Shown: positions 20,295 to 41,330, counted from the first letter of the stretch. The stretch: DNA of 57,948 nucleotides from an uncultured archaeon (GCA_964473825.1 CAYYQL010000015.1:1-57948); one strand, 5' to 3'. The notes: generated by a model from the sequence alone, not told the origin. Numbers and translations are program-made.

Positions 20295-20887
20295 ACAATC
20301 ACCCCAAATACCTGTGTGTAGAGTATGACAAGGACACTCACAACAACAATGAGTTCTACAGCGCCTGAACGGGGATGCCGCTTAAGCGATGCTACTACTA
20401 TGGAGATATCCCCACTTCGGACACTAGTATTGAACAAGATGCTCACAGCCACATACCAGCAGATGATGACAAGCGGGGGTTCTGAGATTAGATACACAAC
20501 GGGAATTGTGATGAGTGCCATTGCTGTGAAGACGCTGGCAACGATGGTCATGTACAGGGCAGTTAGCACAAGACCAACTCGTGGTGGCTTCTCAATCCGG
20601 AGAAAGAGATCCAACTCACCATAGGTCGCGGATCCACTAACATCCTCGACATCGATCCCTCCAATCTTAGCGATGATGTATCTGAGTGTCACAAACACAA
20701 TGCTGCCTGGCAAGAATACTATACTCAAGATAGTAAGCAAAGGATTTCGGGTCCAATCCTCGAATTCCCGTTTCTGTCCGGTCAGAAGCACCACACCTCG
20801 CAATATGCCGACTATCAGGACTACGGTGGGAGTAATCATAACCGAGAATAGGAGATTGCCAACGATGAGCGATGTTAGGTCATCCAT
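20291..20887 (-). CDS. Membrane protein resembling an M50-like zincin peptidase with the HExxH motif lost
   Basis: ~5 TM segments. FLPGSIVFVTLRYIIAKIGG aligns by eye to the ..PG..IHELSH...AK..G pattern. GTGA overlap with the giant protein gene. Confidence 0.55.
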   Translation of the reverse strand: MDDLTSLIVGNLLFSVMITPTVVLIVGILRGVVLLTGQKREFEDWTRNPLLTILSIVFLPGSIVFVTLRYIIAKIGGIDVEDVSGSATYGELDLFLRIEKPPRVGLVLTALYMTIVASVFTAMALITIPVVYLISEPPLVIICWYVAVSILFNTSVRSGDISIVVASLKRHPRSGAVELIVVVSVLVILYTQVFGVIV

Positions 20888-21022
20888 TTGTTGTTCGCCA
20901 TCCTCACACCTATGTTGGTGTACGGTATGAGTAGAGCTGCAAAATAGATAAGATATCGGTCAGACATCAATCAAGCATTTGACGCCTTCTCTGGTCAGTA
21001 TGGAGATTTAGAAGACGTTATG

Positions 21023-21112
21023 GTAACTGTTAAGCCATCAAACATTCCTACGATGGACAATGACCATTATCAACACCCCTTATGATCACGGATTGGACAA
21101 ATGTATATACAA
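21023..21112 (+). promoter_or_regulatory. Conserved intergenic module copy C (upstream box + BRE/TATA-like box), upstream of 21141
   Basis: GTAACTGTTAAGCCATCAAA (21023-21042) starts 70 nt before TTGGACAAATGTATATACAA (21093-21112), the same spacing as in copies A and B. Confidence 0.65.
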
Positions 21113-21140
21113 GAAGGGCGATTAAGACGGGTGTGAGAGA

Positions 21141-22877
21141 ATGGATCTTACAAGAGTGCGCTGGACCGAGAATATGCGGAGAGAGATTCCCGACTACAGA
21201 GTAGTTGCTCAGCTTGCCGAGCGTACCGACCCATCATTTACCTACGAGAGGTTTGAAGCCTCAGCAGGATTGGACCCCCTCTCAGATGAACCTGTAGACT
21301 GGGATACTATAGTAGGAGACCTTGGACAGACCGAGGAGTACGAGAGAGTCCTTACAGCACCAAATCTATGGCTTCAGATGTGTGGCATTCTTCCTCTGGA
21401 CCGGTTCGTCTTGGATCCACTCCTCGTAGAATCGCGGCTACTCTATGCGGATAGGACCTTGAGAGAGGCAAAGGAGAGCTTCTTGCCAACAGTTCATATG
21501 TACCTCCAGTCCATTGATTCAGCCGCGTCAATCTCGGACGACGAGGAATCACTCGTCTTGGATGAGACCAGACTCAGAAGGTCTCTCTGCTACACAATGG
21601 CAAGAACTGTCATGGGCCTACCCCACCACGTTCAGAAGATAATCGATGCAAAAGGTCTTGATCCGTTGACCCGCTCATTGATCAACGTTGTACTCATGGC
21701 CCGTGCGACTGGTAGGCGCATTAGCTGGAGTTCGCTGTTAACATCCGCGAGGAATGCTAATAGCTGGGCCGCAAGAGACCCTGTAGCCTTCTATCCTGTG
21801 TCGGGATTGATCGACTGGGAGAATGACTTTGTGGTGGGCATTGCCTCACGCTCGTTGAAGGGACTTCTGATGCAGGGACTTGCCAAGTTCTGCGCATATG
21901 TCAATAGACTCGGGGGGATTGTCAACCTGACCACTGGCCTGGTAGAAGAAGCCCTTGACCAGAGCCGTACTATGGCACATCGAAAGTTGCGAGAAATGGA
22001 AACCTTCATCTCCGAGACCTTCATGCTGAACCTACAAACACTCGGACTCAGATATCGTGTCGTGTTCTCGGAGGCAGCACGACCAATCATATGGAACACG
22101 GGACTTGCTGAACTCATCGAGCTTGCTGACAGTGACTACCTCATTGCACAGCTCTATCTGGAAACTATGGACTGTGACCCGCCCGACCTGCCTGACAATA
22201 CCTTCACTGTTGCTGCTCGGGGTGAAACATGTTCCATGCACATGGGCATGTTCAAGCCCCAGACCTCAGAGGGAAAAGAAGGCGGCGCCTGGGATTTCAC
22301 CCCTTGGGAACCTGAAGGTGCAATCTCAAGCCCACTCTGGATCCGTAGGAGGACTCCACAGAAGCCTCCGGGTCGCACGCCGTCTCAGACTGACCTGACC
22401 CTCCTCGGACTCCTTGTCGGACACAATGGCTGTTCGCGGAGTAGATACGAACTGATGAATCGTTCGGGAATGCCCAATAGCACCATCTATCAGTCACTGA
22501 GGAACATAGAAGAATATCAGTACGTAACCCAGTTTCTGCACCCCGCCCCTGAATCCTGCTATCTTGGAGATCGAATCATGCTCGCAGTTCGCTGTAATTC
22601 AGCGAGCAGCCTTGAAAACCTGAACTCATGGCTTCTCAGCATCATGCCCTTCGCCCGCATAGTGGCGGACGATAACAATTCATGCCTCCTTGCTCGAGTA
22701 AATGTGCCGCTCTATCGTGGTCCTCTATCGGCCGCCTTGATATCAGAACGCTTGAGTGATGAATTCCATCCGGACGACTTCGCTATAGGAACTGTGAGAT
22801 CCGAAAGATCGTACTGGTTCAGTGTCCTCAAGTCGCTCTATGGTGATGACAGGATTCCCTCTAGTCCATGGAACTAA
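21141..22877 (+). CDS. Large putative regulator with tandem winged-HTH / Lrp-AsnC-like modules
   Basis: HTH-like ALDQSRTMAHRKLREM followed by the Lrp-like linker NLQTLGL. Second wHTH DLTLLGLL...YELMNRSGMPNSTIYQSLRNIEE, then a beta-alpha-beta (RAM-like) region. Recognised by eye only. Confidence 0.55.
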   Translation: MDLTRVRWTENMRREIPDYRVVAQLAERTDPSFTYERFEASAGLDPLSDEPVDWDTIVGDLGQTEEYERVLTAPNLWLQMCGILPLDRFVLDPLLVESRLLYADRTLREAKESFLPTVHMYLQSIDSAASISDDEESLVLDETRLRRSLCYTMARTVMGLPHHVQKIIDAKGLDPLTRSLINVVLMARATGRRISWSSLLTSARNANSWAARDPVAFYPVSGLIDWENDFVVGIASRSLKGLLMQGLAKFCAYVNRLGGIVNLTTGLVEEALDQSRTMAHRKLREMETFISETFMLNLQTLGLRYRVVFSEAARPIIWNTGLAELIELADSDYLIAQLYLETMDCDPPDLPDNTFTVAARGETCSMHMGMFKPQTSEGKEGGAWDFTPWEPEGAISSPLWIRRRTPQKPPGRTPSQTDLTLLGLLVGHNGCSRSRYELMNRSGMPNSTIYQSLRNIEEYQYVTQFLHPAPESCYLGDRIMLAVRCNSASSLENLNSWLLSIMPFARIVADDNNSCLLARVNVPLYRGPLSAALISERLSDEFHPDDFAIGTVRSERSYWFSVLKSLYGDDRIPSSPWN

Positions 22878-22962
22878 GTATTCATCATTTTCAGAATCAG
22901 CATTCCAAGCGGAGTGGAAGCAAGGTCATGGACTATTAGAAGGGGACCTCATTGCAGGTCTA

Positions 22963-23955
22963 TCATCGAACAAAGCTCTCAAGCGTGGATTGGGTGTTTC
23001 CAAAGTCCTTCCAGGACCAAACGAGGTCTCGTGTTATCTTCTCGGCCCTATCCTCATTCATTGTCAGACTGAGCATCTTCACCAGACGAGATGGTAGTGG
23101 CGGAGACAGAGTGAAATTGGTATTCCCGACATGAATTGATATCTCGCCCTCATCAAAGACCTCTCTTGCGCGCATCAACCCATCCCTCTCTTCGAAAGAA
23201 ACACCAAGATGTCTTAGAACCGATTGTAGGTCACCATGCCTGCGCAACAAGACTGTACCCTTCCTCGGACCGATACCTTTCACTCCAGAGTGGAAATCAC
23301 ATCCAGATAGGACTGCAAGGTCACGCAACTGTGAGGGGGTCAGGGTTGTTTCACTGATCAATGATGCCAGTGTGGTGCTCTCGATACGACCCTGTGTGAG
23401 TTCCAAAGCTCTGGTTGCATGAGGCGAACCAAAAAGGATCGTATCGGCGTCGTTGCTGACCACCGTGCCCACCTTTCTCTCACGGCATAACACGGCAGCG
23501 AAAAGCTCTGCCTCTGATGGCGCAGTGATCCCAGGAATGCCACAAAGACTGCATAAGTCCTTGACATGTTCAGCAGCAAAGTAGAGTCGAAGGGCAGGGC
23601 TGGTACGTAGATCATAGGCAATATCTTCATCGTACGCAGTCCCATTGCCACAGAATCGCCGATACAAACGATGTGCGTTCAAGACAAGCTCAGGGTTGGC
23701 ACGGCGCTTCAAGGCCTCAGGTGGCCCGTCAAATACGAATACGGGAAAAACATTGGCTCGAAGCGAGGCACGCACGATGCCAACAAGGATAGACACATGC
23801 TCTGTGGGAATCCGCTCTGGATTCCTCGGGTTTGAAAACACACTGAGCCTCCTTGACATGTAATTCGGAAAGTCGATAGCAAGTATCGGTACGCTAATGT
23901 CCTCCAAGGACTGCCAGCTCCAGTGCAACAGACCCTTCCAGTTACGCACGCCCAT
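22963..23955 (-). CDS. FEN1/XPG-family structure-specific 5' nuclease (paralog)
   Basis: MGV start, LAID, FVFDGPP..LK, APSEAE, SNDADTILFG, SGCDF...VKGIGPRKG (H3TH), C-terminal PIP-like QSTLESF. Confidence 0.92.
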   Translation of the reverse strand: MGVRNWKGLLHWSWQSLEDISVPILAIDFPNYMSRRLSVFSNPRNPERIPTEHVSILVGIVRASLRANVFPVFVFDGPPEALKRRANPELVLNAHRLYRRFCGNGTAYDEDIAYDLRTSPALRLYFAAEHVKDLCSLCGIPGITAPSEAELFAAVLCRERKVGTVVSNDADTILFGSPHATRALELTQGRIESTTLASLISETTLTPSQLRDLAVLSGCDFHSGVKGIGPRKGTVLLRRHGDLQSVLRHLGVSFEERDGLMRAREVFDEGEISIHVGNTNFTLSPPLPSRLVKMLSLTMNEDRAEKITRDLVWSWKDFGNTQSTLESFVR

Positions 23956-24684
23956 TCACGTTTCGCTCCTTATCGACCTAATACCCCCCGGACCGAGTCG
24001 TATGATCACTGCATCATAATCGACCTCGGATGGTGCACGTTCAATATGCACCTTGACATATTCGTTCATCTCTTCGCCCGCAACACTTGCAATATATACC
24101 ACGCTATCTACTGCATGGGCCAAAATGTTCCCGCCTGCAGGTCGACGAGTCCCATCACTCCACCTTTTAGTCGAATGATCAGTGAACACTACGGTCGAAT
24201 CGTTGTCATTTACAAAGCAGCGCAGGGCGTCAAGTGCTGCGAAGAATCTCCGGTTTGACTCCTTGCTATAAGGGCCACCACTAAGATTCAGGGCTCCGGT
24301 GAGACTGTCAATAATCACAAGTCTCGGTCCGAGAACAGCCATATCATCGATGAGGTCTACCAATGATTCCAACCCGAGAATCCTAGCAACATGGATTCTC
24401 GCCAGCACTTCCAGTTCCGACCCCGAGGAGAGTGCCCGAACTGAAGCAGAGGAGTAGTTAGTCCCCGAGTCTATGAAGGCTACTTCTGTATCAGACTTGG
24501 CGGCTGAAACTGCCAAGAGATGAGCAAACCATGTTAGAGGGGCTCGCTCACCGCTGTATACTACTGACATGAGCCGAGGCTGAAACGAGGACCCTAGCAC
24601 TGTATGCAGTACGTCAGGCTGTAACTGAATCTCTACGCCTGAATAGCCATTCTGCAAAGGGACTTCTCTAGGCAAGATTATCAC
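23956..24684 (-). CDS. RecA/Rad51-fold paralog, probably inactive (Walker A lost)
   Basis: LHTVLGSSFQPRLMSVVYSGERAPLTW replaces LD..LGGG...G....GKT. VAFIDS, LVIIDSL (Walker B) and PAGGNILAHAVD are retained. Confidence 0.8.
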   Translation of the reverse strand: MIILPREVPLQNGYSGVEIQLQPDVLHTVLGSSFQPRLMSVVYSGERAPLTWFAHLLAVSAAKSDTEVAFIDSGTNYSSASVRALSSGSELEVLARIHVARILGLESLVDLIDDMAVLGPRLVIIDSLTGALNLSGGPYSKESNRRFFAALDALRCFVNDNDSTVVFTDHSTKRWSDGTRRPAGGNILAHAVDSVVYIASVAGEEMNEYVKVHIERAPSEVDYDAVIIRLGPGGIRSIRSET

Positions 24685-25552
24685 CTGTTACCAGCTCATG
24701 GCAGACCAGTGCACGGTATGCTTGACCAGAAGAGAGTGGTTCAGTAGGTATTCCAGGCACTATGCTGCGAGGAACGAGAACTGAAACTCCCTCTGGAGAG
24801 GGGAAAAGCATCATGCGTACAGGCCATCTCTCGATAACTCTTTCTTTCGATGATGGAACGAGACTCACATAGTCTTTAGGCCGAACGCTGTCACTCAGCG
24901 GAAGGGCCAGCACAATGGACTCGAGCAGCATGTCCATTCGACTATATCGGAGACCATACTCATCTAGCACGCGACAAACACTCTCCAACTGACGAATTGG
25001 AAAAATTATAGTGTCAAGGTCTTGAAGTATCCAGATACTGACTCGAAGGACGCTTCTTTCATCCAGCATTCGAAGAACGGATTCACGCTGACCCTTTTCA
25101 AGCTCGAAGACCCGGAGATTCAAGGTAGAGATATCGTGTTGAAATACCGAGGAATAGGGCATTGACAGGACCATGGATATTTTCTTGGGATCCCGGACTA
25201 AAGCCATCAGAACGCAGACACCTCCTACCGAGCCAAGCAGCATTACTATCCCGGAAGGCAGCACGATGAAGAAGATTGCCAGACAGAGCATTCCCCCGAG
25301 AACAAGAGACATCGCATCAAGTATCGTCTTTGCGAGGTTCAACTTCTGACCCTCTTCTGACTTCACTGACTTCACCTGTCCGGACTTGTAGATCATCCCA
25401 AACGTCAAGACAGCCAACAAGATTAGGGGGGTTATGTTTCCCAGTCTAACCATAACGACAATAGAAGTTATCAAGGCCAACAATTCGGCCCCTATTGCCA
25501 AGACTACAGCTGCTGCAACAACATGCTTGGCAATGCGAAGTATGCCTATCAC
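24668..25552 (-). CDS. Membrane protein (4 N-terminal TM plus soluble domain), unknown function
   Basis: Hydrophobic N-terminal ~120 aa; overlaps both neighbouring genes. Confidence 0.75.
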   Translation of the reverse strand: MIGILRIAKHVVAAAVVLAIGAELLALITSIVVMVRLGNITPLILLAVLTFGMIYKSGQVKSVKSEEGQKLNLAKTILDAMSLVLGGMLCLAIFFIVLPSGIVMLLGSVGGVCVLMALVRDPKKISMVLSMPYSSVFQHDISTLNLRVFELEKGQRESVLRMLDERSVLRVSIWILQDLDTIIFPIRQLESVCRVLDEYGLRYSRMDMLLESIVLALPLSDSVRPKDYVSLVPSSKERVIERWPVRMMLFPSPEGVSVLVPRSIVPGIPTEPLSSGQAYRALVCHELVTGDNLA

Positions 25553-26175
25553 AGAACTACGCCCTCCTCCTCAAAGCTCAGCCTGTTGTTCGCGACTCTG
25601 AATCTCCAACATCGATCCCTTTCATTATCGTGGAGAGAGAAGGCGTCTGGGGAACCATCAGTATTAAGCTGCAGGTCAATATCAGCCCATTTCTTAATCG
25701 CCGCATGATGTACTGGCAACTGGTTTCCATCCAGTTCTCGAATTTGATTGGTGGCAACAATCGTAATACCCCTTGACAGCGACAAAGACACAATTGTAGG
25801 TAGCACCTCCTCGATGAGCTCTCGTCCCCAAGGGGAACCATCTCGCCGGCCCATATGAAGCACTCTCGTGATAGGATCAATGACAATGGTTTTCGTGTCA
25901 TCACGCAGTCTCTCCCGTAGTGTCAGGAGAGTCTGAATTGCGTCAGCCGGGTCTTGCGTGACGAGTATAGTTAGATTGTCCTTGAAACCTCCGTATGCGT
26001 CAAACATATTCCTCAGAGTCTTCATGAAGACGTATTTCCCGTCAAGGCATAACCATAGGACATGCCCCTCACGAGAACGTTTTGCGGCAATTGCGGAGCA
26101 AAGGAGTGTCTTCCCGGACCCTCCAATTCCCCAGATGTGCACGAGGCCGTTCAGGATACCAACGTCTGACACCAA
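25549..26175 (-). CDS. RadB-like RecA-fold ATPase
   Basis: HIWGIGGSGKT (Walker A), WLCLDG, IVIDPIT (Walker B), VATNQIRE. No N-terminal HhH domain. Confidence 0.85.
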   Translation of the reverse strand: MVSDVGILNGLVHIWGIGGSGKTLLCSAIAAKRSREGHVLWLCLDGKYVFMKTLRNMFDAYGGFKDNLTILVTQDPADAIQTLLTLRERLRDDTKTIVIDPITRVLHMGRRDGSPWGRELIEEVLPTIVSLSLSRGITIVATNQIRELDGNQLPVHHAAIKKWADIDLQLNTDGSPDAFSLHDNERDRCWRFRVANNRLSFEEEGVVL

Positions 26176-27810
26176 TTAGTCCTCCGTCTTCTTTAGGGCG
26201 GCACTCGTTGTTGACCCGTCCTCGTGGTTGATCCGTTCGTCCACAAGGCTATTCCTACGACCCACGATTTCAAGGCCCGTGAGAATCGGCTCGTGTGTAG
26301 CACAATCATCCGCGTCTGGCGCGATATCGGAGCCGGCACGTCTTGGCTCTTCTTGATCGGAGACGTCGGTCACCGAGCAAGCCGGGTCTTTGACCACTAT
26401 CTCCTCATCGGAAATCGCATCATGTACGCCCGCCTCCTCACCGCTCTTGTTAATGTCAGAGACCAGTTTGTCCTCTTCGGTTCTCCCAGTTAGTTCGGAG
26501 TCTGTATTATGGAGTTCTTCGTCAAATGTCTGAGCAGCCTTACCCAGACAATGATAGTTGATTGTGTCATCGACTATGCTCTTGGCCTCTGAACGCAGAA
26601 GTCCAGCTTGGAACAGAACGTCATTGAGAAGCGTGATATGCTTGATGAACTCCTCTTCTGAGAGAGGATTCGTTACATGTCCGGTCAGTGCAGCATATGA
26701 GAGGGCAATGCCTTCTTTCTGCTTTTCAATGCCTGGAACTCCCAGTCCTTCGAATAGGCCGATGAACTTGGCAAGACCCTTATCTCCAGAATAGTCATTG
26801 TCAACAGAACTAGATCTGAGAATGCACTCGCTGAAGACTTGGTCACAACGCTCCACAGCACTATCCAGGTCGTCCTCAGCGAGGGAGCGCGCGGCAAGAG
26901 ATAACATTGGAGAAATGACGAAATTCAGTTCGGCCATTTTCTCAATATCTTGCTTATTCTCGTCCAAGCTTCTCTTGAACCGTGACATATCGCCGATGCT
27001 CTTCGTAGCCTCCCGTTCAACCTGGCATACGGAACGAAAGTCATTCACAGCTTTCCGTGTCACCACAAGAAAGCACATCATGAAGAGGATGTCACCCAAG
27101 AGCAGAAGCAGAGGGATGAGAGATGCTACGGAGAGCAGAGCTAGAATGTTCGCAGCTGCAAAGATCAGTGCCGCGACCATATACCAACCTCTCACTCCCT
27201 TTTTCAGATGGTCCCATTTCTTCGAGTCTATACTCTTGGACAGCTCGGTGACACGCATCCGTCGGTCGCTACTAACGGAGATTGAGAACTCATCCAAGCC
27301 TATGATTTGGTTCTCATCGGTGAACCAACCCAGGTCGGATGAAGGGCGAGCACCATCAACAATAACGTACGCAGATCTCGACTCGAAGACCTCTGACCCG
27401 TTATCGTCATTCTCAGGTAGCAGCACAGGGATTTCAAGGGTCCCGCAGATAGTAGGAACTCTTCGTAGCTGCAGACGCTCACCAGAGTTCACGATGTTCA
27501 ACAACCGTTCCAATGGCTGAGTTGCAATCTCCAAGACCTCACTCTTGATGGCAAGGGGACTTCTCCCAAAGCTACTATTTCGAAGGTCGAGAACAATCAA
27601 TGTATCAACCAAGACCGAGTTTGTACCTTTGATTCCAATGTAGTTAGTACCAGCCAAGAGTCCATTCGCAAACTGGTGAGTGGTGTAGCCCATCTTATGC
27701 AATATACGCGCTATGTCACTCTCAGTTTCTGTAGGAGTTTCCTTAGACTCGGTCTCAGGATGTTCTTCAGTCGTTTCCTCTATCACTCTCTTCTCTGTCG
27801 CTTCCATCAT
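26176..27810 (-). CDS. Two-TM membrane protein with a helical domain and acidic low-complexity termini
   Basis: Track ORF 26176-27849; ATG at 27810 follows an SD-like GAGGAGG. Central TM hairpin WYMVAALIF...FMMCFLVV. Confidence 0.78.
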   Translation of the reverse strand: MMEATEKRVIEETTEEHPETESKETPTETESDIARILHKMGYTTHQFANGLLAGTNYIGIKGTNSVLVDTLIVLDLRNSSFGRSPLAIKSEVLEIATQPLERLLNIVNSGERLQLRRVPTICGTLEIPVLLPENDDNGSEVFESRSAYVIVDGARPSSDLGWFTDENQIIGLDEFSISVSSDRRMRVTELSKSIDSKKWDHLKKGVRGWYMVAALIFAAANILALLSVASLIPLLLLLGDILFMMCFLVVTRKAVNDFRSVCQVEREATKSIGDMSRFKRSLDENKQDIEKMAELNFVISPMLSLAARSLAEDDLDSAVERCDQVFSECILRSSSVDNDYSGDKGLAKFIGLFEGLGVPGIEKQKEGIALSYAALTGHVTNPLSEEEFIKHITLLNDVLFQAGLLRSEAKSIVDDTINYHCLGKAAQTFDEELHNTDSELTGRTEEDKLVSDINKSGEEAGVHDAISDEEIVVKDPACSVTDVSDQEEPRRAGSDIAPDADDCATHEPILTGLEIVGRRNSLVDERINHEDGSTTSAALKKTED

Positions 27811-29938: not shown

Positions 29939-29976
29939 ATCGGTACGTACACTATTCTCCGAGGAAGTCGTTGATG

Positions 29977-32307: not shown

Positions 32308-32591
32308 GGCGACACACCACGCTTAGTGTGCATTCGCTCCGCTGATAGTGAGCTCATAGCACGAAGAAGTCCTCTCACTCGTTCAATGGTGCGGGTTTCG
32401 TCCTGTTGGATGAGAACGCGGTCATGCATCAGAGCCACAGGCGGGTAGATCTTGGAATGTCCCACTGCATTGAGTGGGTCATTCAGCAACACAGTCCATG
32501 AATAGGACAGCCCTTTCATGGCGTCCATCACATCTCCCGAATTGACTCCAGCAGGAATCTCAATGGTCTCAAACTGCTTCAATCTCTTCAA
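32304..32591 (-). CDS. Small hypothetical protein (95 aa), operon member
   Basis: Overlaps the upstream gene by 23 nt and is ATGA-coupled to the downstream gene. Confidence 0.65.
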   Translation of the reverse strand: MKRLKQFETIEIPAGVNSGDVMDAMKGLSYSWTVLLNDPLNAVGHSKIYPPVALMHDRVLIQQDETRTIERVRGLLRAMSSLSAERMHTKRGVSP

Positions 32592-33162
32592 TGCCTCCTG
32601 AATCCGCTAGAACGGAGTCGGCCAAGTTACCCATGGCAATAGCAACATGAGGGTAAGCTGCATTCATGGCAGCACGCAGGATATGAGCATCTTCGATTAC
32701 CCGGTCCCTCAATCGCTCGAAGGTGTCAATAAACGGAATGCGAAGTCCCTGTCGAATCACTTTGAAACCAAGTCGAGTCCGCGAGTTTCCCAACGGCCGC
32801 GCGAGGATGAATGTGACCTCTCCCCCTCTCGAATGATGATAATGATCATGCATTGCCAGTAAAACACGCTTGGCTGAGTGAGACAGGGTGATTCCGATTG
32901 GAATCCTATCAAACAGAACCAGACTTGATACTTCCACCGTAAAGGGTCGCGTATCCACAAGTACGTTGTTCTCCCCATCCCAGTATCGTGAATGGTTGGG
33001 TGAATGCAACAGCAGAACGATGCCTATCACTACGATACCCAATCCACTGAGTGACAGAAGCACTGAGTGCAACGATTTATCGAAGGCCAAACGCAACACC
33101 CAGCCTAAGGCCAGTGCAATGGGTATACCGATAGTAGCCAACCAGCTTAGTTGCTCTCTCAA
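32569..33162 (-). CDS. Two-TM membrane protein with an alpha/beta soluble domain
   Basis: Two N-terminal hydrophobic helices; TTGA overlap with the XPD stop. Confidence 0.72.
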   Translation of the reverse strand: MREQLSWLATIGIPIALALGWVLRLAFDKSLHSVLLSLSGLGIVVIGIVLLLHSPNHSRYWDGENNVLVDTRPFTVEVSSLVLFDRIPIGITLSHSAKRVLLAMHDHYHHSRGGEVTFILARPLGNSRTRLGFKVIRQGLRIPFIDTFERLRDRVIEDAHILRAAMNAAYPHVAIAMGNLADSVLADSGGIEEIEAV

Positions 33163-35111
33163 GTAGCATTCCTCCAGAACATCTCGATTGCCTCGATAAG
33201 CTCGTCCTCAGTGGAATAGGGCCAAGTATCAGCAGCTGCACGGGAGCCCAGCATGGTAACATGCCGCAGGAACCTGTTGTCAAGCAATACCACCACACCA
33301 CGGTCTGCAGGAGAACGCCTCAGACGCCCCACTAGTTGAACCACCCTTCGAAGGGCGGGCATCACCGCTGCGTAATAGTAACCTCGACCCTCTCCGAGTC
33401 GTCGGTCGTACCATGATTGTAACGCAAGCTGATACGAAGTGGGCGGGGCGAACGGAATTCCAACACCAACAACAAGGTCCAAGAGACTCGCACCCCTATC
33501 TACTAGGTCGACTCCTTCCGAGAACTTGCCACCATAGACAGAGTACAGCACAGAAGGCTCTTCCAGAAGCATCTCCCGTATATCGTCAACTCGTGCATTG
33601 CGCTCTTCCACTACTCGCCTGCGAAAACCGTCCTCAACGCCATAGCTCAGGACATCATTCATGATGGCATAGCTAGAGAAAGCAACAACCGCACTCTTGT
33701 TTGCAGGACTATGCGTGAGCACCAGTGAGAGATTCTGAGCAAGAGCCCCATACAGCGAGGCAGAACGATTCTTGTAGGCGGTATTCAGCTTCTTGTCTAT
33801 CAGTACGAGTCGCGAGCCGACCGGATAGGGACTGGCTATGTCACAAACTTCAGCGTCCCGTACGCCAAGGATTGTTGCATAGTGGCTGGTTGGCCGAAGC
33901 GTACCACTCATCAGGACAGCAGACCGCGTACTGTGTACGAGATAGGAGCATAATCCTGCAGTATTCAGGGGGCGGATACAGAGCCTCGTATGGGAAAGGC
34001 GAGGATTCTCGTCCCACGTTCTGCCAGTCTCAAAGGTGATGTGCCAGTCATCCTGGTCACTCGACTCCGAAGCTAAGGTCGCCGCGTACAAGAAATCCAA
34101 GAGGCGGTCAGCAGGTGTTTCGGCCCCGATTACATCATCGCCTCTCTGCACATATCCAGTCTTGGTAAGCAGCAACGATATGTCGGCCTCAACTGCAAAC
34201 CTCGGAAGTACCTCCCAGATGTTGAGCTCTCGTTCGCCGCCATTATGCAGCCGACCTGTGTTCAAGGTGAATGTGTCCCAAAGGAATTCTATGACATCTT
34301 CTAACCATTCGTAGCCGGTCTCTCGCGAGAGGTCTTTTTTATGCTCCCTCAACCACTGGATATCTTGCCCGCTGATTGACGCCGACTCAGATTCAGCCAT
34401 CTGTTCGGGAAGGTTATGGGCCTCATCTACTAACAGGTCAATCTCATCGATTGAGAGATCCAATGATGAGAGGAATGCCTGTTGCACACGACTCTTCAAC
34501 AAGTAGGCGTAGGGTCCTATGATCACTTGGCTTCTCTTCGCACACCACCGCAGGAGTTCGTAGGGGCATATCCCCCAATCCCTCGAAACGGCCTCTGCTG
34601 TGCTGCGGTCAACAACTGACTGTGCGACTGCTTCCTCTATTGCAGCACGGGCGTTCTCCCGCACTTGGCCTCTATCACCTCGTGCATCGTAGAAACTATG
34701 ATAGTATGGGCACTTCCCAGTCCTGACAAGATATGCACAACCCCGAATAAAGCCGAAATCGCTCATCTTGTTAATCTCTCCGACATTGGGGCAGACATGA
34801 ACTCTACTTACCATGCTTGTGGCGATGATCGGGAATCGGTCAGCAAGGGTAAGACACTCTTCCTCAAACACGCTCGATTGACTATGAGTCCGGGTGAGCA
34901 CAACTAGTCGAGTCTTCTCATGGTTCGACCTTGCCCCCACAAAGGCACTGAGAACTGCTATTGTCTTTCCCACTCCGCAGTCTGCGGAGAGTAACCCTAT
35001 CTTACCACTCCTGAAAATGTCTGCAGCGTACTCTATGGCGGTCTCCTGCCCATCCCGTAATCTGTACGGAAACACATCGTGGACCGGGTCGAGGTACGTT
35101 CCTGAACTCAT
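33159..35111 (-). CDS. XPD/Rad3/DinG-family Fe-S SF2 helicase
   Basis: RDGQ Q-motif, ADCGVGKT, TRTHSQ, four Fe-S Cys (VCP, GC, KCPY, ICPY), DEAH, SGT, EGVD, QLVGRLRR, LDNRF. Confidence 0.93.
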   Translation of the reverse strand: MSSGTYLDPVHDVFPYRLRDGQETAIEYAADIFRSGKIGLLSADCGVGKTIAVLSAFVGARSNHEKTRLVVLTRTHSQSSVFEEECLTLADRFPIIATSMVSRVHVCPNVGEINKMSDFGFIRGCAYLVRTGKCPYYHSFYDARGDRGQVRENARAAIEEAVAQSVVDRSTAEAVSRDWGICPYELLRWCAKRSQVIIGPYAYLLKSRVQQAFLSSLDLSIDEIDLLVDEAHNLPEQMAESESASISGQDIQWLREHKKDLSRETGYEWLEDVIEFLWDTFTLNTGRLHNGGERELNIWEVLPRFAVEADISLLLTKTGYVQRGDDVIGAETPADRLLDFLYAATLASESSDQDDWHITFETGRTWDENPRLSHTRLCIRPLNTAGLCSYLVHSTRSAVLMSGTLRPTSHYATILGVRDAEVCDIASPYPVGSRLVLIDKKLNTAYKNRSASLYGALAQNLSLVLTHSPANKSAVVAFSSYAIMNDVLSYGVEDGFRRRVVEERNARVDDIREMLLEEPSVLYSVYGGKFSEGVDLVDRGASLLDLVVGVGIPFAPPTSYQLALQSWYDRRLGEGRGYYYAAVMPALRRVVQLVGRLRRSPADRGVVVLLDNRFLRHVTMLGSRAAADTWPYSTEDELIEAIEMFWRNAT

Positions 35112-35112
35112 C

Positions 35113-35703
35113 TTATCGCTCCCACCTGAGCTTTGACTCGGATTTCTGAACCATGAACTTCACGGAGAAGTATGCATGCAGCAACTCCTCGAATTGCTTC
35201 AGCTGAAATGGAGAAGTAAAGCCCTGTTCCTTGCGGCCCATTCGTTCGACGATGCGTCGGCTGAACCCCCGTTGTCTTGCGGCCTTCCAGAAGTAAGCGA
35301 CCACTTCATCCACAGTCTCATAGAAAAACTGGGCAGTGTCCTGCATGAGCCTCACCAGAAAACTAATGCTCCTGCCCCGGTCTTCCGGAATATCCGAGAG
35401 GCGAACACCTGTGGGGATATGAACCATGACGCCCTCCAGTGACTCCAAGTTTACCTCTGTGGGCACTGCGTTAGAACCACGAGCACTCTCGATGATAGCA
35501 AGAAGTCTGGGAAGATAAGGCAGTATCGGGGATTCGAAATCTTCAGAGCGCCAGGTCACCCGAGTAATGAGATAAATCTCAGGGTCGAGTTCTACATATC
35601 CTGGAAGCCTGATCAGCGCAAGTCGTTCCTTACCATTGCGGCGTGAGAAGTTCACGAGGCGGATTAGGTTCTGTGCAGGAGAAGTATCTGAAACAGCTGT
35701 CAT
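35113..35703 (-). CDS. Hypothetical protein (~196 aa), operon member
   Basis: Track ORF 35113-35772; ATG at 35703 forms an ATGA overlap with the upstream stop. Confidence 0.72.
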   Translation of the reverse strand: MTAVSDTSPAQNLIRLVNFSRRNGKERLALIRLPGYVELDPEIYLITRVTWRSEDFESPILPYLPRLLAIIESARGSNAVPTEVNLESLEGVMVHIPTGVRLSDIPEDRGRSISFLVRLMQDTAQFFYETVDEVVAYFWKAARQRGFSRRIVERMGRKEQGFTSPFQLKQFEELLHAYFSVKFMVQKSESKLRWER

Positions 35704-36104
35704 AGCAAAGTGACCTCCTTTCCTACCAGACGAATCCGTTCTATGGCCTCTAACCGATTCAGGAAATGCCAAGCGCGTTCTGTGGAAATATCTGCATCAC
35801 TGCACTCGTTGAGCACGTCTGAAACTTGTACGGGTCGGCCCCGATTTCCATCGACCAGACATTCAACGATGTCCAACACACGTGCCTGCACACCTCGCCC
35901 GCGACTGATGCTTCGGGTTGGGCGCACTCTCTCTTGTGACATCGATGCCATGATGACCCTCGCCTGCTCTATGGTGTCTACTGACTGGTAATTCCCTATT
36001 TCTTGACCACAGACACTACAAGTCAGAGTGTCACTAACGTCTTCGATTTTCTGAAACCCAAGCTGGTGACAGCCGTCACAGCGATACATGTAGAAGACCG
36101 TCAC
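35700..36104 (-). CDS. Zinc-ribbon plus C-terminal winged-helix protein
   Basis: CDGC...CSVC, then VLDIVECL...PVQVSDVLNECSDADISTERAWHFLNRLEAIERI (wHTH pattern). Coupled on both sides. Confidence 0.78.
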   Translation of the reverse strand: MTVFYMYRCDGCHQLGFQKIEDVSDTLTCSVCGQEIGNYQSVDTIEQARVIMASMSQERVRPTRSISRGRGVQARVLDIVECLVDGNRGRPVQVSDVLNECSDADISTERAWHFLNRLEAIERIRLVGKEVTLL

Positions 36105-37159
36105 TCCTTCCCGTCCTCCTGCCCTCCGTCCTCCACCACTGTTCCGTCAGGCATCAGACGAGCATTCCAGCCCTGCTTCTTGATGAACTTGTCAATCTTC
36201 TTCTTCGCGGCCGTCTTCATATCTTTGTCCTCATAGAAGCCACCCCAGCCAAGCTCAACCTTGGCCTCGAACTCAGGAATTCCAGCATTGTCCTTGAGCT
36301 GAATTCTCCGTTCGGTACCCTTTGCTGGTCTTGTGTAGAAACGATAGTCACAGCCATGGGCCAGAATGTGCCCGCCAATGGGAGCAGTGCCGCTGTAGTA
36401 GGAGCCAATGTTTGTTAGTACCTGATTTGTATAGAGGAAGATTGTTCCGGTTGCTACACCGGTACGGCGCATCGAGTTCAGAAGGGAGTTCATGTCCTTC
36501 TGTCGCACACTGAGGTTGTTCAGGGCAGTGTATTCTGCTCTGAACAGACCACTGAAGGAGTCGATAACCACAAGCTTGTAGTTCTCCTCCGCACAGAGTC
36601 GGGGTATAGTTTCGAAGGTGTCAATAATCTGACTTGAGAGGATCATCTGCGATATCCCTATGTTCCCTAAGACCACCTCAGGGTCAAGACCGAATCGGAT
36701 GGCTGTGGCACGAATCACCCATGGCTTGAAACTGCTCTCACTGTCCATCCACAAGACTCTCCCACCTAGTCCACCCTCGTCCACTGGGAGCTGTGCTCTC
36801 ACTGCCAAGTGGCAAGACCACTGTGTCTTTCCGCCCCGAGCAGCACCATAAATCTCCACAATGGAGGATTCCTCGATGCCACCAAGGAGCTGATCATCGA
36901 TGTCGGGAATGCCGAAGGTGAGACGATTCTTTGCGGCCATCTTCTTCTCAAACTCAAGGCCACTCTGGAACCCGTGCATGCCGATCATCTGGCGGGCGTT
37001 CCGTACAATTTTCGCAGCGGTTCCCTCGCCTAATTTCGTCTTCTCCTGCAGTTCGACAGGGTTCTGTACAGCCAGTAGTTCAGCTGTGGTCACAAATATT
37101 CCATTCAGTTTTTTTGCTGTTCCAGGGCCTACGCCCGGGACTGCCTCTAATTCTGTCAT
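36101..37159 (-). CDS. RadA/Rad51-like recombinase paralog with N-terminal HhH domain
   Basis: LEAVPGVGPGTAKKL, IDDQLLGGIE, EIYGAARGGKTQ, WMDSESSFKP, LVVIDS, FRAEY, TNQV, PIGGHILAH. Confidence 0.92.
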   Translation of the reverse strand: MTELEAVPGVGPGTAKKLNGIFVTTAELLAVQNPVELQEKTKLGEGTAAKIVRNARQMIGMHGFQSGLEFEKKMAAKNRLTFGIPDIDDQLLGGIEESSIVEIYGAARGGKTQWSCHLAVRAQLPVDEGGLGGRVLWMDSESSFKPWVIRATAIRFGLDPEVVLGNIGISQMILSSQIIDTFETIPRLCAEENYKLVVIDSFSGLFRAEYTALNNLSVRQKDMNSLLNSMRRTGVATGTIFLYTNQVLTNIGSYYSGTAPIGGHILAHGCDYRFYTRPAKGTERRIQLKDNAGIPEFEAKVELGWGGFYEDKDMKTAAKKKIDKFIKKQGWNARLMPDGTVVEDGGQEDGKE

Positions 37160-38154
37160 GTTGATTCCTCCATAATCAGTCGTAGACTCTCGGAGGACTC
37201 GTAGACGGTCCTCCAGAGTTCAATGTCTCTTGCTTCATCCGATTCGTCGTAGAATCCCCCGTAGCCCATGTACGCCGATACGTCGCGTATCGAGTCGTTC
37301 CCCACTCCTCCCTTCTTGACAGTGATGCGGTACTCGTTACGCCTCCTCTTTCGCATGCTCAGCACGGTAGTGGATAGAGAGTTGACAACGAACTCGGCAT
37401 CCGGCTCGTATTGATCGTGGCAGTACAAACCCCCGATGCTCTCATGGACGCCATTCGTGAATACAACACAGAGATCGTGGGCCAACGCTATTTCGAGGAG
37501 GCGGCGAAGAAAGCGACCAAGGTCACGCTTCGCAGCCAGACTGTAAGTGAGCCCGAGGTACTCCGTCTGGAATATGCTGGACAGCGAGTCTATGACCAGG
37601 AGTGCGTACTCTCGCTCGCTATCAGAGAGGAGGGAGTACATCTGCTGGACAATCTCTTCAAGATCGAACTGTGTGATGGCCAAAGCGTGGTCGATCATGT
37701 CCAGAACTGAGTCAGGATTCCATCCGCATCTTGTGGCAATGGTTCTCGTAAGATAGGGCTTGAATGTGGCCCCGCTGTCTATCCAGAGGACTCGTCCATG
37801 GGCACTTGCCCGCACCGCCAGCTGACAACACAGCGTTGTCTTCCCAGATGACGATTTCCCATGGATATGCGTCACCGTCCCCGTACGAACCCCTCCCACT
37901 AGGACCTTGTCAAGACCCCTAACAGCAGTTCGAATGTGACGACCTGAATCAAATTCTTGAGAAGGCATTAGCTCAGATGGGAAGATGAGCCTACGAGCAT
38001 GCCGCTGAAGCTCCTCAAACCTCTCAGATCCAAGCTCATCTAAGACAGGGAGTGTTTCGATCATGGCAAGATGCTCCGCGCTATGTATTCCAGCATTCTT
38101 GAGGCGCTTGGCCGTGGCCGGCCCGATATCTCTGACCTTCTCAAGTGCCGTCAC
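37156..38154 (-). CDS. Second RadA/Rad51-like paralog with N-terminal HhH domain
   Basis: Track ORF 37156-38268; GTG at 38154 (GTGA overlap) preferred. LEKVRDIGPATAKRLKNAGI, LDKVLVGGV, HGKSSSGKT, WIDSGATFKP, LLVIDSL, FTNGV. Confidence 0.88.
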   Translation of the reverse strand: MTALEKVRDIGPATAKRLKNAGIHSAEHLAMIETLPVLDELGSERFEELQRHARRLIFPSELMPSQEFDSGRHIRTAVRGLDKVLVGGVRTGTVTHIHGKSSSGKTTLCCQLAVRASAHGRVLWIDSGATFKPYLTRTIATRCGWNPDSVLDMIDHALAITQFDLEEIVQQMYSLLSDSEREYALLVIDSLSSIFQTEYLGLTYSLAAKRDLGRFLRRLLEIALAHDLCVVFTNGVHESIGGLYCHDQYEPDAEFVVNSLSTTVLSMRKRRRNEYRITVKKGGVGNDSIRDVSAYMGYGGFYDESDEARDIELWRTVYESSESLRLIMEEST

Positions 38155-38816
38155 GCCGTGACACCCCCTGCGGTCTGATGCGCCTGGTATGCCTGTTCTG
38201 TGTGCAGGAAATTGACCACTGAAGATAGCAGGGGGTCTCGAAGACGCTCCCGACTGAAAGCAGAACATAGCATAGTATCAGCAGTCTTCACTAGAATCCG
38301 TAGTGCAGTAGACCGATGTGTATTCGTCGACCAACCGTCTGATCCCGAGATCAAGCCCGAGGCAGAGGAGAGAAAAGACATCCATCGCCTGCGCGTGACT
38401 TCGGGAAGCAAGTCCTCTGACTCCTTCAAGAGGCAGTCGTAGAATAGCTCACAATGGCGGTCCCACATGGCAAGAACCTGTGATGCAGTGCGCAAGGTGT
38501 GTATGGGGCTTCTATCATCAAAGCTCATGTAGACCTTAGTGGTGTCGTTTCGCACGATTGCTCCACCCTGTATTCCTGGTTGAGTTATGGCAACAAGAGC
38601 AGGTACTAGTGCAGGTACATCACAAAGGAAGAAGCGCCGCGGCTGTTGAACGAACGGGCTGAGAATAGTGCTCCGCAACCCCCAGAGCATAGTAAGAAAG
38701 GACCTGTGGCTCAGTGAACTCACGAGTACTCTGTCTGCGGTATTGAACCTGCTTATGGACTTCCGCAGGTCAACAGTCTGACTCGAGCACATCTCTGGAA
38801 GAAGACTAAGTAACAT
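38151..38816 (-). CDS. Hypothetical protein, first gene of the recombination operon
   Basis: 221-aa ORF with ATG preceded by AGGTGA; coupled to the next gene by GTGA. Confidence 0.68.
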   Translation of the reverse strand: MLLSLLPEMCSSQTVDLRKSISRFNTADRVLVSSLSHRSFLTMLWGLRSTILSPFVQQPRRFFLCDVPALVPALVAITQPGIQGGAIVRNDTTKVYMSFDDRSPIHTLRTASQVLAMWDRHCELFYDCLLKESEDLLPEVTRRRWMSFLSSASGLISGSDGWSTNTHRSTALRILVKTADTMLCSAFSRERLRDPLLSSVVNFLHTEQAYQAHQTAGGVTA

Positions 38817-38898
38817 CCATTTTCACCTATGGAGATATTCTAACCAGAGAAGTATTCAGTCTTCGCTAGCATGTCGATACGGATTATGCTTTCCGTAT

Positions 38899-39020
38899 AG
38901 GTATCTTTAGGCCGTTCATAATGCCTCCTTATTACTATTATATCATCATAAGCGTTTTTCGTAGTTTCGGGGGCAGCATAATACCTATCCATTCTCCTCT
39001 TTGGACAGATGTATACAAAC
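38899..39020 (+). promoter_or_regulatory. Conserved intergenic module copy B
   Basis: AGGTATCTTTAGGC; CATAA at 38917, 38947 and 38977; ATTACTATTATATCATCATA (38931-38950); TTGGACAGATGTATACAAAC (39001-39020). Confidence 0.7.
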
Positions 39021-39179
39021 AAGTGACAGAATGTGAGATTCAGAGGATGCCACAGCTTGTACTAGTGAGATGTCAGTGACCAGAGAAACACATGACTGGA
39101 GGTTCTTGAGACTGACAAAGGCAACCGATATCCACAAAGATAGGCAGGTCAGGCAGTCTAATTCTTTTGCGTCTGGCTG

Positions 39180-41174
39180 CTACTCGGAGAATGACCGAAT
39201 CTGTGAGAGTAACCCGCTAATATCGCTATTCCACCCAGTCTCATGGTCATATATCCGCTTATGGAGAGAACGGGTCTGGTTCCACCTACTCAAAAACTCA
39301 AATAGTCGCAAATCTATCTCCCGACTGTAGGCAACCTTCTGGAGCTCACCTCCAAGGAAGAGCTTGTCCTGATTACGAACCCGTATCACTGCAAAGACCT
39401 CGCATAGACTCCTCTCTGGATGTGACACGTAGACTGTACCATAGTATGCATATTGTATCAATGCGTCTATCACTGAGAGTATGTTTTCCGCATCGCCGCC
39501 CATGGTCACATTACTCATCCACAGTAGGACTACCGAGCCCGCCCTGTGGTTCGGCCCATATGAGAGATGGAGGATCTCTCTCTCAATCAAACTCGCTCCA
39601 ATCTGCTCAATCTCCGCTCTTGTGATATCGGAGGGGAAGATACCACGCTCAAGGCTATTACCACTACTAGACGTGAGTAGATCCAATACTTCCAGTTCCT
39701 TCTCAGACAGGGTATAGACCTCGTCGTTATGGGGCCCGTATTTTTTCCGCAAATCCGATAGAGATGTTTTCTCGGTGATTGTCTCACCTATGAACTCGAT
39801 GCTGGCCTTCTCACGCAGGTTGGTGAATCGGTAGCTCCAGTCAACCACTCTTGCAGACCGTTTCAGGACATGCGTCAGTTGCTCGCATGATCTAAGTGGC
39901 ATCAGCAACAGGTTTAACCTAGGTTCTCGAATTGCTGGGGATGTGAATCCCTCGCGACTCACGTCTTTCATCTCCGCGCTCCATACAAGGTGACGATGCG
40001 GCCAGCCATGAGCTCGACCGATGTGTACTACCTTTCGCAGCCCTATCTTCGGATGGTGTATTCCTCCACGAACGGCTACAACATCGAGACAGAGCATCTC
40101 ACCCCGAAGACCCCACATCTTTGAGTCACTAAGGGCGTCTTCAGGAGTGATCGGCATACACGTGTACACCCTACGGGACTTGTTCATTCTCTCATACAGG
40201 TCGAGTAGTTCTGGCGAGTTGGGGGATTCTAGCAGGCGTGCATATGGCATGTAGCTTCTTCCCATCTCCGAAGATATGAGGCTAGGATTGCCCTTTCCCT
40301 CATGAAGAAGACGTACGTAATCTGGAGTCGTTCGTCCAAGTGCTTTTCGCACAAGGTGCTCAATCTCATATCTGCAGTAGAGCGGTGCAGCACTGTATCG
40401 ATTTGCATAGTATTCCAGTGGCTCAATTCTGGGAATCTCCAGAGACTCCATATTAGCAAAGAACGCCATGAGTTCTTCTCGCCATTGCTCCGGAATGTGT
40501 TTAGGAACAATCTGATTGATAGTTTCGCGTGCTGTCTTACCCATCTGAAAATCTGTGACTGGATGACCTCGTGTCAACTGAAATAGTGTCCTGAAGCTCG
40601 GCGATTCTCCATCAAGCACCGCAAGCAAATGTTGACGAACTCTTTCGTCTTCTGGCCCTCTCTCGCGGTATGGGGTCGCTTCTGCCACTAGACGTTCGTA
40701 TTCCATCAGTCGAAAAGCCTCCAGCTCGTAGGGCTTGATGGTGTGCATGTGAAGCACTTCTCCATTCTGGATGATGGTTAGAAGTGAGTCCTCACCAGCG
40801 GTCTTCTGAAAGATGTAGGTGGCCAAAGATCTGCCCTCCAGCAAGCGACAGAACCAGGGGTACTTTGATGGCGGGTAAAAGCGGCTGGTGACTCCAGTCA
40901 TGTCACCTGGGTCATATGCCTCAGTGAATACCTCTTCTGCCCTGTTGACTATCAGCCTCTTATTGAGACGTTCCTCACAGAATTCACCGCCCATGGTTCT
41001 GAATATCGCTATATCAAGACTGTAGCTGTGGTAGTCGGCCGGAAGTCCTTTTCCTGAATTGGGATCCTTGAGATCGATTCCCACATCTGATACGGTCAGG
41101 ATAGCGTCTACTGCGTCATCAGAGCTATAGGCGACGACTTCTTTCTCAAACATGTCGGAATCATCTGACTTCAC
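39180..41174 (-). CDS. Large putative regulator with C-terminal winged-HTH / Lrp-AsnC-like modules
   Basis: Linker-like HHPKIGLRKVV, wHTH-like LSEKELEVLDLL...ITRAEIEQIGASLIEREIL, then a beta-alpha-beta region. Architecture parallels 21141-22877. By eye only. Confidence 0.5.
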   Translation of the reverse strand: MKSDDSDMFEKEVVAYSSDDAVDAILTVSDVGIDLKDPNSGKGLPADYHSYSLDIAIFRTMGGEFCEERLNKRLIVNRAEEVFTEAYDPGDMTGVTSRFYPPSKYPWFCRLLEGRSLATYIFQKTAGEDSLLTIIQNGEVLHMHTIKPYELEAFRLMEYERLVAEATPYRERGPEDERVRQHLLAVLDGESPSFRTLFQLTRGHPVTDFQMGKTARETINQIVPKHIPEQWREELMAFFANMESLEIPRIEPLEYYANRYSAAPLYCRYEIEHLVRKALGRTTPDYVRLLHEGKGNPSLISSEMGRSYMPYARLLESPNSPELLDLYERMNKSRRVYTCMPITPEDALSDSKMWGLRGEMLCLDVVAVRGGIHHPKIGLRKVVHIGRAHGWPHRHLVWSAEMKDVSREGFTSPAIREPRLNLLLMPLRSCEQLTHVLKRSARVVDWSYRFTNLREKASIEFIGETITEKTSLSDLRKKYGPHNDEVYTLSEKELEVLDLLTSSSGNSLERGIFPSDITRAEIEQIGASLIEREILHLSYGPNHRAGSVVLLWMSNVTMGGDAENILSVIDALIQYAYYGTVYVSHPERSLCEVFAVIRVRNQDKLFLGGELQKVAYSREIDLRLFEFLSRWNQTRSLHKRIYDHETGWNSDISGLLSQIRSFSE

Positions 41175-41200
41175 ATCTTCGTCAGGCGGATTTGACTGTT

Positions 41201-41330
41201 TTGTGTATACTTTTGTCCAATGTCAATGATTACGAGGCTTTATGGTCCTATTTCAGTTGCTTTACGTACTTTTAATGTTATTATAGTTATAACATAGCGT
41301 TATGGCGGCTTTTCCAGCCTAAAGAGACCT
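41201..41330 (-). promoter_or_regulatory. Conserved intergenic module copy A, upstream of 41174
   Basis: Reverse complement reads AGGTCTCTTTAGGC...CATAA...ATAACTATAATAACATTAAA...CATAA...TTGGACAAAAGTATACACAA. Ungapped match to copy B of 60/104 nt by hand count. Confidence 0.7.

Follow-up and report, generated by a model that had tools for sequence, protein, structure and literature searches.

Results

Gene content and layout of the locus

The stretch of DNA analyzed here (the window) is the entire contig C15, 57,948 bp, of a 3.27-Mb draft genome with 49% G+C (G000) from an archaeon that we take to be a Thorarchaeota-type Asgard archaeon, a placement that does not come from this analysis. The subject of this work is an intergenic module of about 100 bp that occurs three times in the window (copies C, B and A), each copy carrying two short sequences, box I and box II, at a fixed distance from each other. 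The locus includes, in this order, the 2579-aa and 198-aa genes (minus strand), module C, a 578-aa gene (plus strand), an operon of 15 genes (minus strand), module B, a 664-aa gene (minus strand), module A, and a gene of the GH3 family (plus strand). It was compared with the genome of a sister species of the same genus (G002) and with genomes of three other genera (G003, G008 and G009). The features are listed below; the fractions give the identity of each box to its counterpart in the sister species.

12555 to 20887, minus strand: pair of 198-aa and 2579-aa genes (open reading frames, ORFs), the latter encoding a giant surface protein; proposed target of module C
21023 to 21032, plus strand: box II core of module C, GTAACTGTTA, exactly 70 nt before box I; 10/10
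21093 to 21112, plus strand: box I of module C, TTGGACAAATGTATATACAA, between the 578-aa gene and the 198-aa/2579-aa pair; 20/20
21141 to 22877, plus strand: 578-aa gene, candidate regulator with a predicted C-terminal winged helix-turn-helix (wHTH) plus RAM fold, Lrp/AsnC-like
22963 to 38816, minus strand: 15-gene operon (Pfam); proposed target of module B
38899 to 38912, plus strand: AGGTATCTTTAGGC, a third similarity between modules B and A, with its counterpart AGGTCTCTTTAGGC at 41331-41318 (minus strand)
38931 to 38940, plus strand: box II core of module B, ATTACTATTA; 10/10
39001 to 39020, plus strand: box I of module B, TTGGACAGATGTATACAAAC, 185 nt upstream of the operon start; 19/20
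39180 to 41153, minus strand: 664-aa gene, coding for 657 aa when read from ATG 41153; a distant paralogue of the 578-aa gene, with which it shares the predicted C-terminal fold
41201 to 41220, minus strand: box I of module A, TTGGACAAAAGTATACACAA, between the 664-aa gene and the GH3 gene; 20/20
41281 to 41290, minus strand: box II core of module A, ATAACTATAA; 10/10
41431 to 42972, plus strand: GH3-family gene (ligase; Pfam GH3); proposed target of module A

According to Pfam, the operon encodes RadA paralogues, XPD-like and Hel308-like helicases, a FEN1-like nuclease and membrane proteins of unknown type. Linkage of the 198-aa/2579-aa genes to the locus is observed in 16 genomes. PADLOC made no defence-system assignment for the unknown proteins and returned generic helicase matches only, and no paper on this gene cluster was found in the literature. 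A first-pass annotation of the window, made from the sequence alone, had placed box I of modules C and A 48 and 46 nt before the starts of the two large genes. These offsets are correct for ATG 21141 and GTG 41174; however, GTG 41174, given as the start of the 664-aa ORF, is replaced by GGG in the sister species, where ATG 41153 is kept, and for this reason the conserved start is probably ATG 41153, 67 nt from box I. The structural model of this protein is well folded from that residue onward.

A two-box element with fixed spacing

The three 20-nt sequences reported in the first-pass annotation at 21093 (+), 39001 (+) and 41220 (−) are found as described. They define a box I with the consensus TTGGACAnAnGTATAYA, whose palindromic core is TGTATATACA at C, TGTATACA at B and GTATAC at A; box II, RTWACTRTWA, is a different sequence. 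TTGGACAnAnGTATA occurs four times in the genome. Exact matches to TTGGACANANGTATA are likewise four, the three of this locus and one on another contig (C4:46871), when about 0.1 would be expected for a pattern with 13 specified bases. The longer form proposed for the second box, RTWACTRTWA-nnn-CATYAWA, is located exactly 70 nt upstream in the three modules and nowhere else in the genome, a count that is partly circular given that the pattern was fitted to the same three copies.

The gap-free alignment of B and A with 60 identities in 104 nt was reproduced. In the 84 nt upstream of the 20-mer these two copies agree at 44 positions, versus 22 ± 3.8 in shuffled sequences, and the values for C against A (32/84) and C against B (30/84) reach p ~0.02-0.03; module C shares with the other two little beyond the two boxes and their spacing. 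The motif AGGT(A/C)TCTTTAGGC, described as common to B and A, is present in both, but it is not conserved in the sister species: there, neither the AGGTMTCTTTAGGC stretch nor the CATYAWA half of box II is kept, and only the RTWACTRTWA part of the second box stands. The AGGTATCTTTAGGC/AGGTCTCTTTAGGC similarity is probably the trace of a common origin of B and A and not a functional box, and we interpret the CATYAWA half and the AGGTMTCTTTAGGC stretch as traces of that origin too.

A fifth copy with one mismatch, TTGGACAGATGTCTA / TTGGACAGATGTCTACAATG, was found at C10:8333 (−), with GTTATTACTAT 71 nt before it; it is located 238 nt upstream of a 1180-aa HerA-like (DUF87) gene on the opposite strand (C10:8310-12113). 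On C4, the copy is 369 nt away from what remains of a DUF2695 gene. When the genome was searched with nhmmer, using a profile of the module, just these five sites and one doubtful match were recovered, so that the two-box element is not a pattern of background frequency in this genome. The three copies of the window do frame the locus geometrically, as had been proposed, but the frame is incomplete, since more copies exist on C10 and C4. The doubtful sixth site, C1:219624 (ATGGACAGAAGTATA), was left as such (nhmmer E 0.09, no clear box II, no fitting neighbour). The motif STTATNNCTAT occurs 38 times in the genome, and 4 of these occurrences are at −73/−74 from the five box I sites.

Some observations concern the surroundings of individual copies. 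The stretch of about 680 bp around the fourth copy (C4:46382-47061) is 85-86% identical to two places in the sister species, with unrelated flanks, and to its left only the first 50 codons of the DUF2695 gene are present, a gene that is intact in G002 and G003. The sequence CAAATCCG is common to module A (41191-41198, −) and C4 (46898-46905), 22 and 27 nt after the first base of box I, that is, with a difference of 5 nt in register; copy A of the sister species has CAAATTCT instead, and CAAATCCG may be a third short box or a chance similarity. Inside module B, upstream of the operon (38884-38932), there is an ORF of 11 codons, MNGLKIPIRKA (ATG 38919, −), with AAGGAGG 6 nt ahead; its ribosome-binding site, ATG and length are kept in the sister species and 5 of its 11 residues are changed, and it may be an upstream ORF or a chance one. 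A small protein encoded after copy B was considered and rejected, given that the ORF at 39047-39079 has 10 codons here and 20 in the sister species. A structured RNA element was also rejected: Rfam gave no match at the modules, and the folding energy of nine modules on both strands was not below that of shuffled sequences (z −1.6 to +1.6), except for one strand in G009 (z −3.6).

The boxes are more conserved than the spacers

The locus is collinear with that of the sister species over 24 kb, with 87.4% identity and no inversion. Across the three modules, box I plus RTWACTRTWA is identical at 89 of 90 positions, versus 143 of 180 (79%) in the three 60-nt spacers (C 52/60, at 21033-21092; B 45/60; A 46/60), a contrast with a Fisher p of 1.5e-6. 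The spacers are about as conserved as the third codon positions of the flanking genes (79-82%), and they contain zero indels. The distance of exactly 70 nt is observed in the three copies of this genome, in their three orthologues and at two further sites of the sister species, and it is 71 nt at C10. In that species the three copies are kept, and there are four more exact ones and one with a single mismatch. Another genome of the genus (G001) has no exact box and a very divergent 664-like gene, on a contig of only 3 kb. From the sequence comparison, the boxes are non-random and under selection.

These data bear on whether the modules could be neutral leftovers of the duplication of an intergenic region, devoid of any present function. 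The 52% identity of B and A over the 84 nt upstream of box I would fit such an origin, as would the AGGTMTCTTTAGGC stretch that both share and that is absent from the sister species. Nevertheless, this explanation is disfavoured because boxes and spacers differ in their conservation, and the length of the spacer is kept exactly; in addition, what C has in common with A and B is limited to the boxes and their distance, and the layout recurs with other sequences in three genera and at unlinked orthologous genes (see below). We consider a neutral leftover very improbable.

The module is found at the same places in other genera with different sequences

For the other genera, the corresponding loci were fetched and the intergenic regions were compared within each genome. 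In G003, a 35-nt box, CATCATCGCAAACGGCACAACAAATATCTACTTTT, is present three times, in the places and orientations of A, B and C. The module of G009 measures about 112 nt and also occurs three times; CATTTGCACAGCCGTAACACC is the equivalent of box I, and AACTGCTAC is located exactly 77 nt before it in every copy. This spacing also holds in the copy whose spacer is unrelated in sequence. In G008, CACCTCAAAGTTTAAC is accompanied by TATTTGCAAAAA or TATTATCAAAAA at −75 at 4 of 4 sites. A few further occurrences of each of these boxes were found in the respective genome, and the controls with reversed patterns gave zero matches. Altogether there are 5-8 copies per genome, and they precede the same orthologous genes in different genera; for example, the HerA-like orthologues of G000, G002, G003, G008 and G009 carry the box of their own genus ~150-255 nt upstream. 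One site with homologous flanking genes is occupied by TTGGACAAAGGTATACACAA in G002 and by CATCGCAACCGGCACAAC in G003 and G018, and because of this the different box sequences are regarded as positional equivalents. Conservation upstream of orthologues was thus found for layout and position, which are kept in the three genera, but not for the sequence of the boxes, which differs from genus to genus.

Two of the G009 copies (locus L066, 6448-6559 and 9656-9767) are inverted relative to each other and 94.6% identical over 112 nt; between them lie two genes, one of 494 aa whose family is unknown and one of 484 aa with leucine-rich repeats, and the third copy shares only the boxes with them. The identity of the inverted pair suggests a recent duplication or gene conversion.

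The first-pass annotation had also raised the possibility that the copies are sites of recombination or inversion, with C and A around the locus and B and A around the 664-aa gene, or else relic ends of a mobile element. C/A and B/A are indeed inverted pairs, the content between inward-facing copies varies among genera, and the inverted copies of G009 flank a 3.1-kb segment with a gene content unlike that of the other genera. Against this idea, the 24 kb shared with the sister species show no inversion, and an A/C or A/B inversion does not account for the way in which gene order differs among the genera. No family of recombinases, integrases or transposases was detected in the 19 ORFs scanned (20291-42972), single unlinked copies precede the orthologous HerA-like genes in five genomes, and each genome has 5-8 copies, with no target-site duplications or terminal repeats seen. 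We give very little credence to recombination sites or relic ends.

The position of the module follows the genes on the box II side

The distances from box I to the neighbouring gene starts are the following; for the other genera the starts are estimates from ORFs and homology, good to about ±30 nt.

Box I to the operon start: G000 185 nt, G003 183 nt, G009 180 nt, G008 178 nt
Box I to the 198-aa gene start: G000 206 nt (from ATG 20887), G003 186 nt, G009 202 nt, G008 193 nt
Box I to the GH3 start: G000 211 nt (from 41431), G003 216 nt, G009 177 nt, G008 364 nt (the sole exception to the range 177-216)
Box I to the 578-aa gene start: G000 48 nt (from ATG 21141), G008 ~63 nt, G003 ~211 nt, G009 ~400 nt

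Taken together, box I is found anywhere from 46 to ~400 nt from the 578-aa and 664-aa genes, and the 664-aa gene adjoins a module only in G000, G002 and G003. From these distances, the module is positioned relative to the genes on its far side (that of box II), not relative to the two large genes.

Two gene orders are present in the family. In the first one the 664-aa gene is located between the GH3 gene and the operon (G000, G002 and G003); in the second one it is convergent behind the 2579-aa gene, and the GH3 gene is beside the operon (G005, G010, G021 and G024). The 664-aa gene is also behind the 2579-aa gene in G006, G007, G011, G019, G020 and G022, and in G008 and G009 it is convergent with the GH3 gene. 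In G005, the HerA-like gene adjoins the cluster, on the side of the 664-aa gene.

In G005, G010, G021 and G024 the GH3 gene and the operon are direct divergent neighbours. The intergenic region between them in G005 contains two inward-facing boxes ~300 nt apart, each ~217 nt from its own gene, and a third copy precedes the HerA-like gene; G021 has a comparable facing pair at ~120-130 nt from each gene. What lies between the facing boxes is variable. In G005 and G021 they are separated by ~300 nt and in G008 by ~510 nt; G000 and G003 have the 664-aa gene there, and G009 has a pair of different genes, one of which encodes leucine-rich repeats. Box I of module B points toward the 3' end of the 664-aa gene, and it has equivalents in G003, G008 and G009. 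Since two modules face each other where the GH3 gene and the operon adjoin, copy B is the operon's own upstream module and not an orphan promoter, and the 664-aa gene is an occupant of the variable gap between the facing modules of the operon and the GH3 gene.

Box I as a possible core promoter

Box I had been interpreted as an atypical B recognition element (BRE) and TATA box. According to this proposal it would fire toward the 578-aa and 664-aa genes, with box II as a phased activator site 70 nt upstream, and at copy B it would fire toward a small RNA or an antisense RNA. For comparison, a BRE/TATA matrix was learnt from 19 tRNA upstream regions of this genome (consensus CGAAAtGgTTATAT); in these regions the element starts ~38-45 nt before the mature tRNA end and most of them score 8-15 bits.

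Several features of box I do resemble a promoter. Its GTATA(TA)C is preceded by an A-rich stretch, and it resembles some tRNA promoters of this genome, e.g. CCAAAATGCCTATATACC. It is at a normal promoter distance from both Lrp-like genes, 48 nt upstream of ATG 21141 and 67 nt upstream of ATG 41153, within the A/T-rich zone (−38 to −74) that is usual in this genome. Counted from the start of the TATA element, these distances are −37 and −56, which are compatible with that zone. Box I also tops the promoter candidates in the 253 nt before the 578-aa gene, and the 44 nt that follow copy B are kept at 42 of 44 positions in the sister species (counted by hand).

On the other hand, with the tRNA matrix box I of module C reaches 4.0 bits, and those of A and B score lower, outside the top six of their regions; these values are below the 8-15 bits of most tRNA promoters. 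Its positional equivalent in G009 is G+C-rich, without a TATA-like or A/T-rich stretch, and the distance to the 578-aa start grows to ~211 nt in G003 and ~400 nt in G009. In the BRE-to-TATA direction a gene follows box I at C and A; at copies B, C10 and C4, three of the five, there is no conserved ORF and no gene within 150 nt. The facing boxes of G005 span ~300 nt without a gene between them. Moreover, box I is a nearly identical sequence of 13-20 nt limited to five sites, a further difference from an archaeal BRE/TATA. We regard box I as a core promoter as an unlikely explanation, though one that deserves some weight, and the assignment made in the first-pass annotation is only partly right. 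Box I is probably, in the first place, a putative protein-binding site that in this genus overlaps the weak promoters of both candidate regulator genes. Core promoters of the far-side genes were also looked for with the tRNA matrix; the matches were scattered and contradictory, in A/T-rich stretches, and none was assigned.

The 578-aa and 664-aa proteins as candidate regulators

AlphaFold2 models of the two large proteins were built on alignments of 15 sequences, with a predicted local distance difference test (pLDDT) of 76 for the 578-aa protein and 83 for the 664-aa protein. The C-terminus of both models includes three helices and a hairpin, forming a wHTH, followed by a beta-alpha-beta-beta-alpha-beta RAM domain; this unit is at ~416-557 in the 578-aa protein and at ~484-625 in the 664-aa protein, with pLDDT mostly >85. 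The top Foldseek match of both is NirDL (E 1.4e-4 and 4.8e-5, respectively), and further matches are AsnC, LrpC and PH1519, at a target TM-score (TMt) of 0.45-0.51; Atlas gave leads only, at 0.86. The claim that both flanking large genes are Lrp-like is in agreement with this modelled C-terminal fold.

The best structural match, the siroheme decarboxylase NirDL/AhbAB (PDB 4ch7, 4czc), is formed by tandem Lrp/AsnC-like units. In contrast to the candidates, it is an enzyme of haem d1 synthesis of ~300 aa, the identity is ~10% and the query TM-score 0.24-0.31, and the gene neighbourhood described here has no pointer to tetrapyrrole metabolism.

The 578-aa and 664-aa families are distant paralogues (hhalign 98.5%, E 1.7e-15, 447 columns). 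BLASTP between the two proteins found nothing, their kinship being visible by profile comparison only, and tblastn against this genome detected no further paralogues of either gene. Of 24 genomes belonging to the same family, 21-22 were found to carry the two genes; 16 genomes of other families yielded neither.

Discussion

In this work we characterized an intergenic module that goes with a small set of genes in a lineage of archaea. The explanation that we consider best, and to which we assign a reasonable but far from complete degree of confidence, is that the module is a lineage-specific composite operator with two boxes that serves a small conserved regulon, and a putative site for a regulator encoded in the locus itself. 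The five sites in the genome, the rigid spacing and the selection on the boxes agree with the regulon-specific regulatory element foreseen in the first-pass annotation.

According to this proposal, each copy would present two short, predicted protein-binding boxes at a rigid distance (70 nt), and would act mainly on the gene at the box II side. The regulon would comprise at least five sites, those of the operon (B), the 198-aa/2579-aa pair (C), the GH3 gene (A), the HerA-like gene (C10) and the DUF2695 remnant (C4). With box II ~115-166 nt and box I ~185-240 nt before the start of the gene concerned (369 nt at the C4 remnant), both boxes would be upstream of the core promoter, like an upstream activating site. 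The likely binder would be one or both of the Lrp/AsnC-fold paralogues, proteins that change in sequence from genus to genus along with the boxes. Box I is, in this genus, 46-67 nt before both candidate regulator genes, where it probably overlaps their weak promoters; autoregulation would be the consequence.

It is common for archaeal regulators of the Lrp type to bind several regularly spaced sites, wrap ~100 bp, autoregulate, and be encoded divergently beside their targets (PMC2995911). The closest operators are those of Ss-LrpB from Sulfolobus solfataricus, Ptr2 from Methanocaldococcus jannaschii and LrpA from Pyrococcus furiosus (PMC2995911). The module resembles them in its short boxes with fixed spacing within a control region of ~100 bp, in a candidate regulator gene that is divergent beside the targets and shares a control region with them, in a box near the candidate's own start, suggestive of autoregulation, and in a small regulon with few extra sites elsewhere, next to candidates that would have a wHTH plus RAM fold. 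The differences are also clear. A classical Lrp has ~150 aa and its operator is one palindrome of 13-15 bp repeated every 2-3 helical turns; in contrast, the candidates are a paralogous pair of 578-664 aa in which the N-terminal part is large and its family unknown, they go undetected by Lrp/AsnC sequence models, their binding here is a prediction, and the two boxes are unlike each other and 68-77 bp apart.

Several points weigh against the operator and the regulators proposed for it. The spacing of the boxes across genera, 68-77 nt, does not correspond to a constant number of helical turns, and no shared box was found by searches for gapless segments and short words in the fetched parts of the loci of G007, G010, G022, G011, G019, G006 and G024. 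Box I is BRE/TATA-like in 3 of 4 genera, and of the promoter candidates ahead of the 578-aa gene it ranks first in spite of being weak. With regard to the proteins, neither has a match in Pfam or NCBIfam (E up to 0.01) or a PADLOC assignment, the profile matches to solved Lrp/AsnC chains are marginal (E 0.1-0.8), and their assignment to Lrp/AsnC comes solely from the modelled fold; given that NirDL is an enzyme, the shared fold is no proof of DNA binding. Finally, the gene starts in the other genera carry the uncertainty given above, and the related genomes are kin, with counts that are not independent.

If a composite operator is present, it ties a 15-gene operon without an assigned function to the surface-protein pair, the GH3 gene, the HerA-like gene and the DUF2695 gene as one testable regulon, and it points to two candidate regulators for which the boxes of the other genera would be natural controls of specificity. 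A further possibility, which we put forward tentatively and hold to be rather doubtful, is that the paralogous Lrp-fold pair and the rigid two-box operator make up a self-contained and fast co-evolving switch, in charge of a competence-like or DNA-exchange regulon in Asgard archaea. If true, such a switch would bring the membrane-linked recombination operon of Thorarchaeota under common control with three further partners (the giant surface protein, the GH3 ligase, and a second ATPase of the HerA-like type), with an operator sequence that is rewritten in every genus. In the pattern described here, position and spacing are kept and the sequence is replaced in each genus, and this would make it a natural example of the co-evolution of an operator and its regulator.

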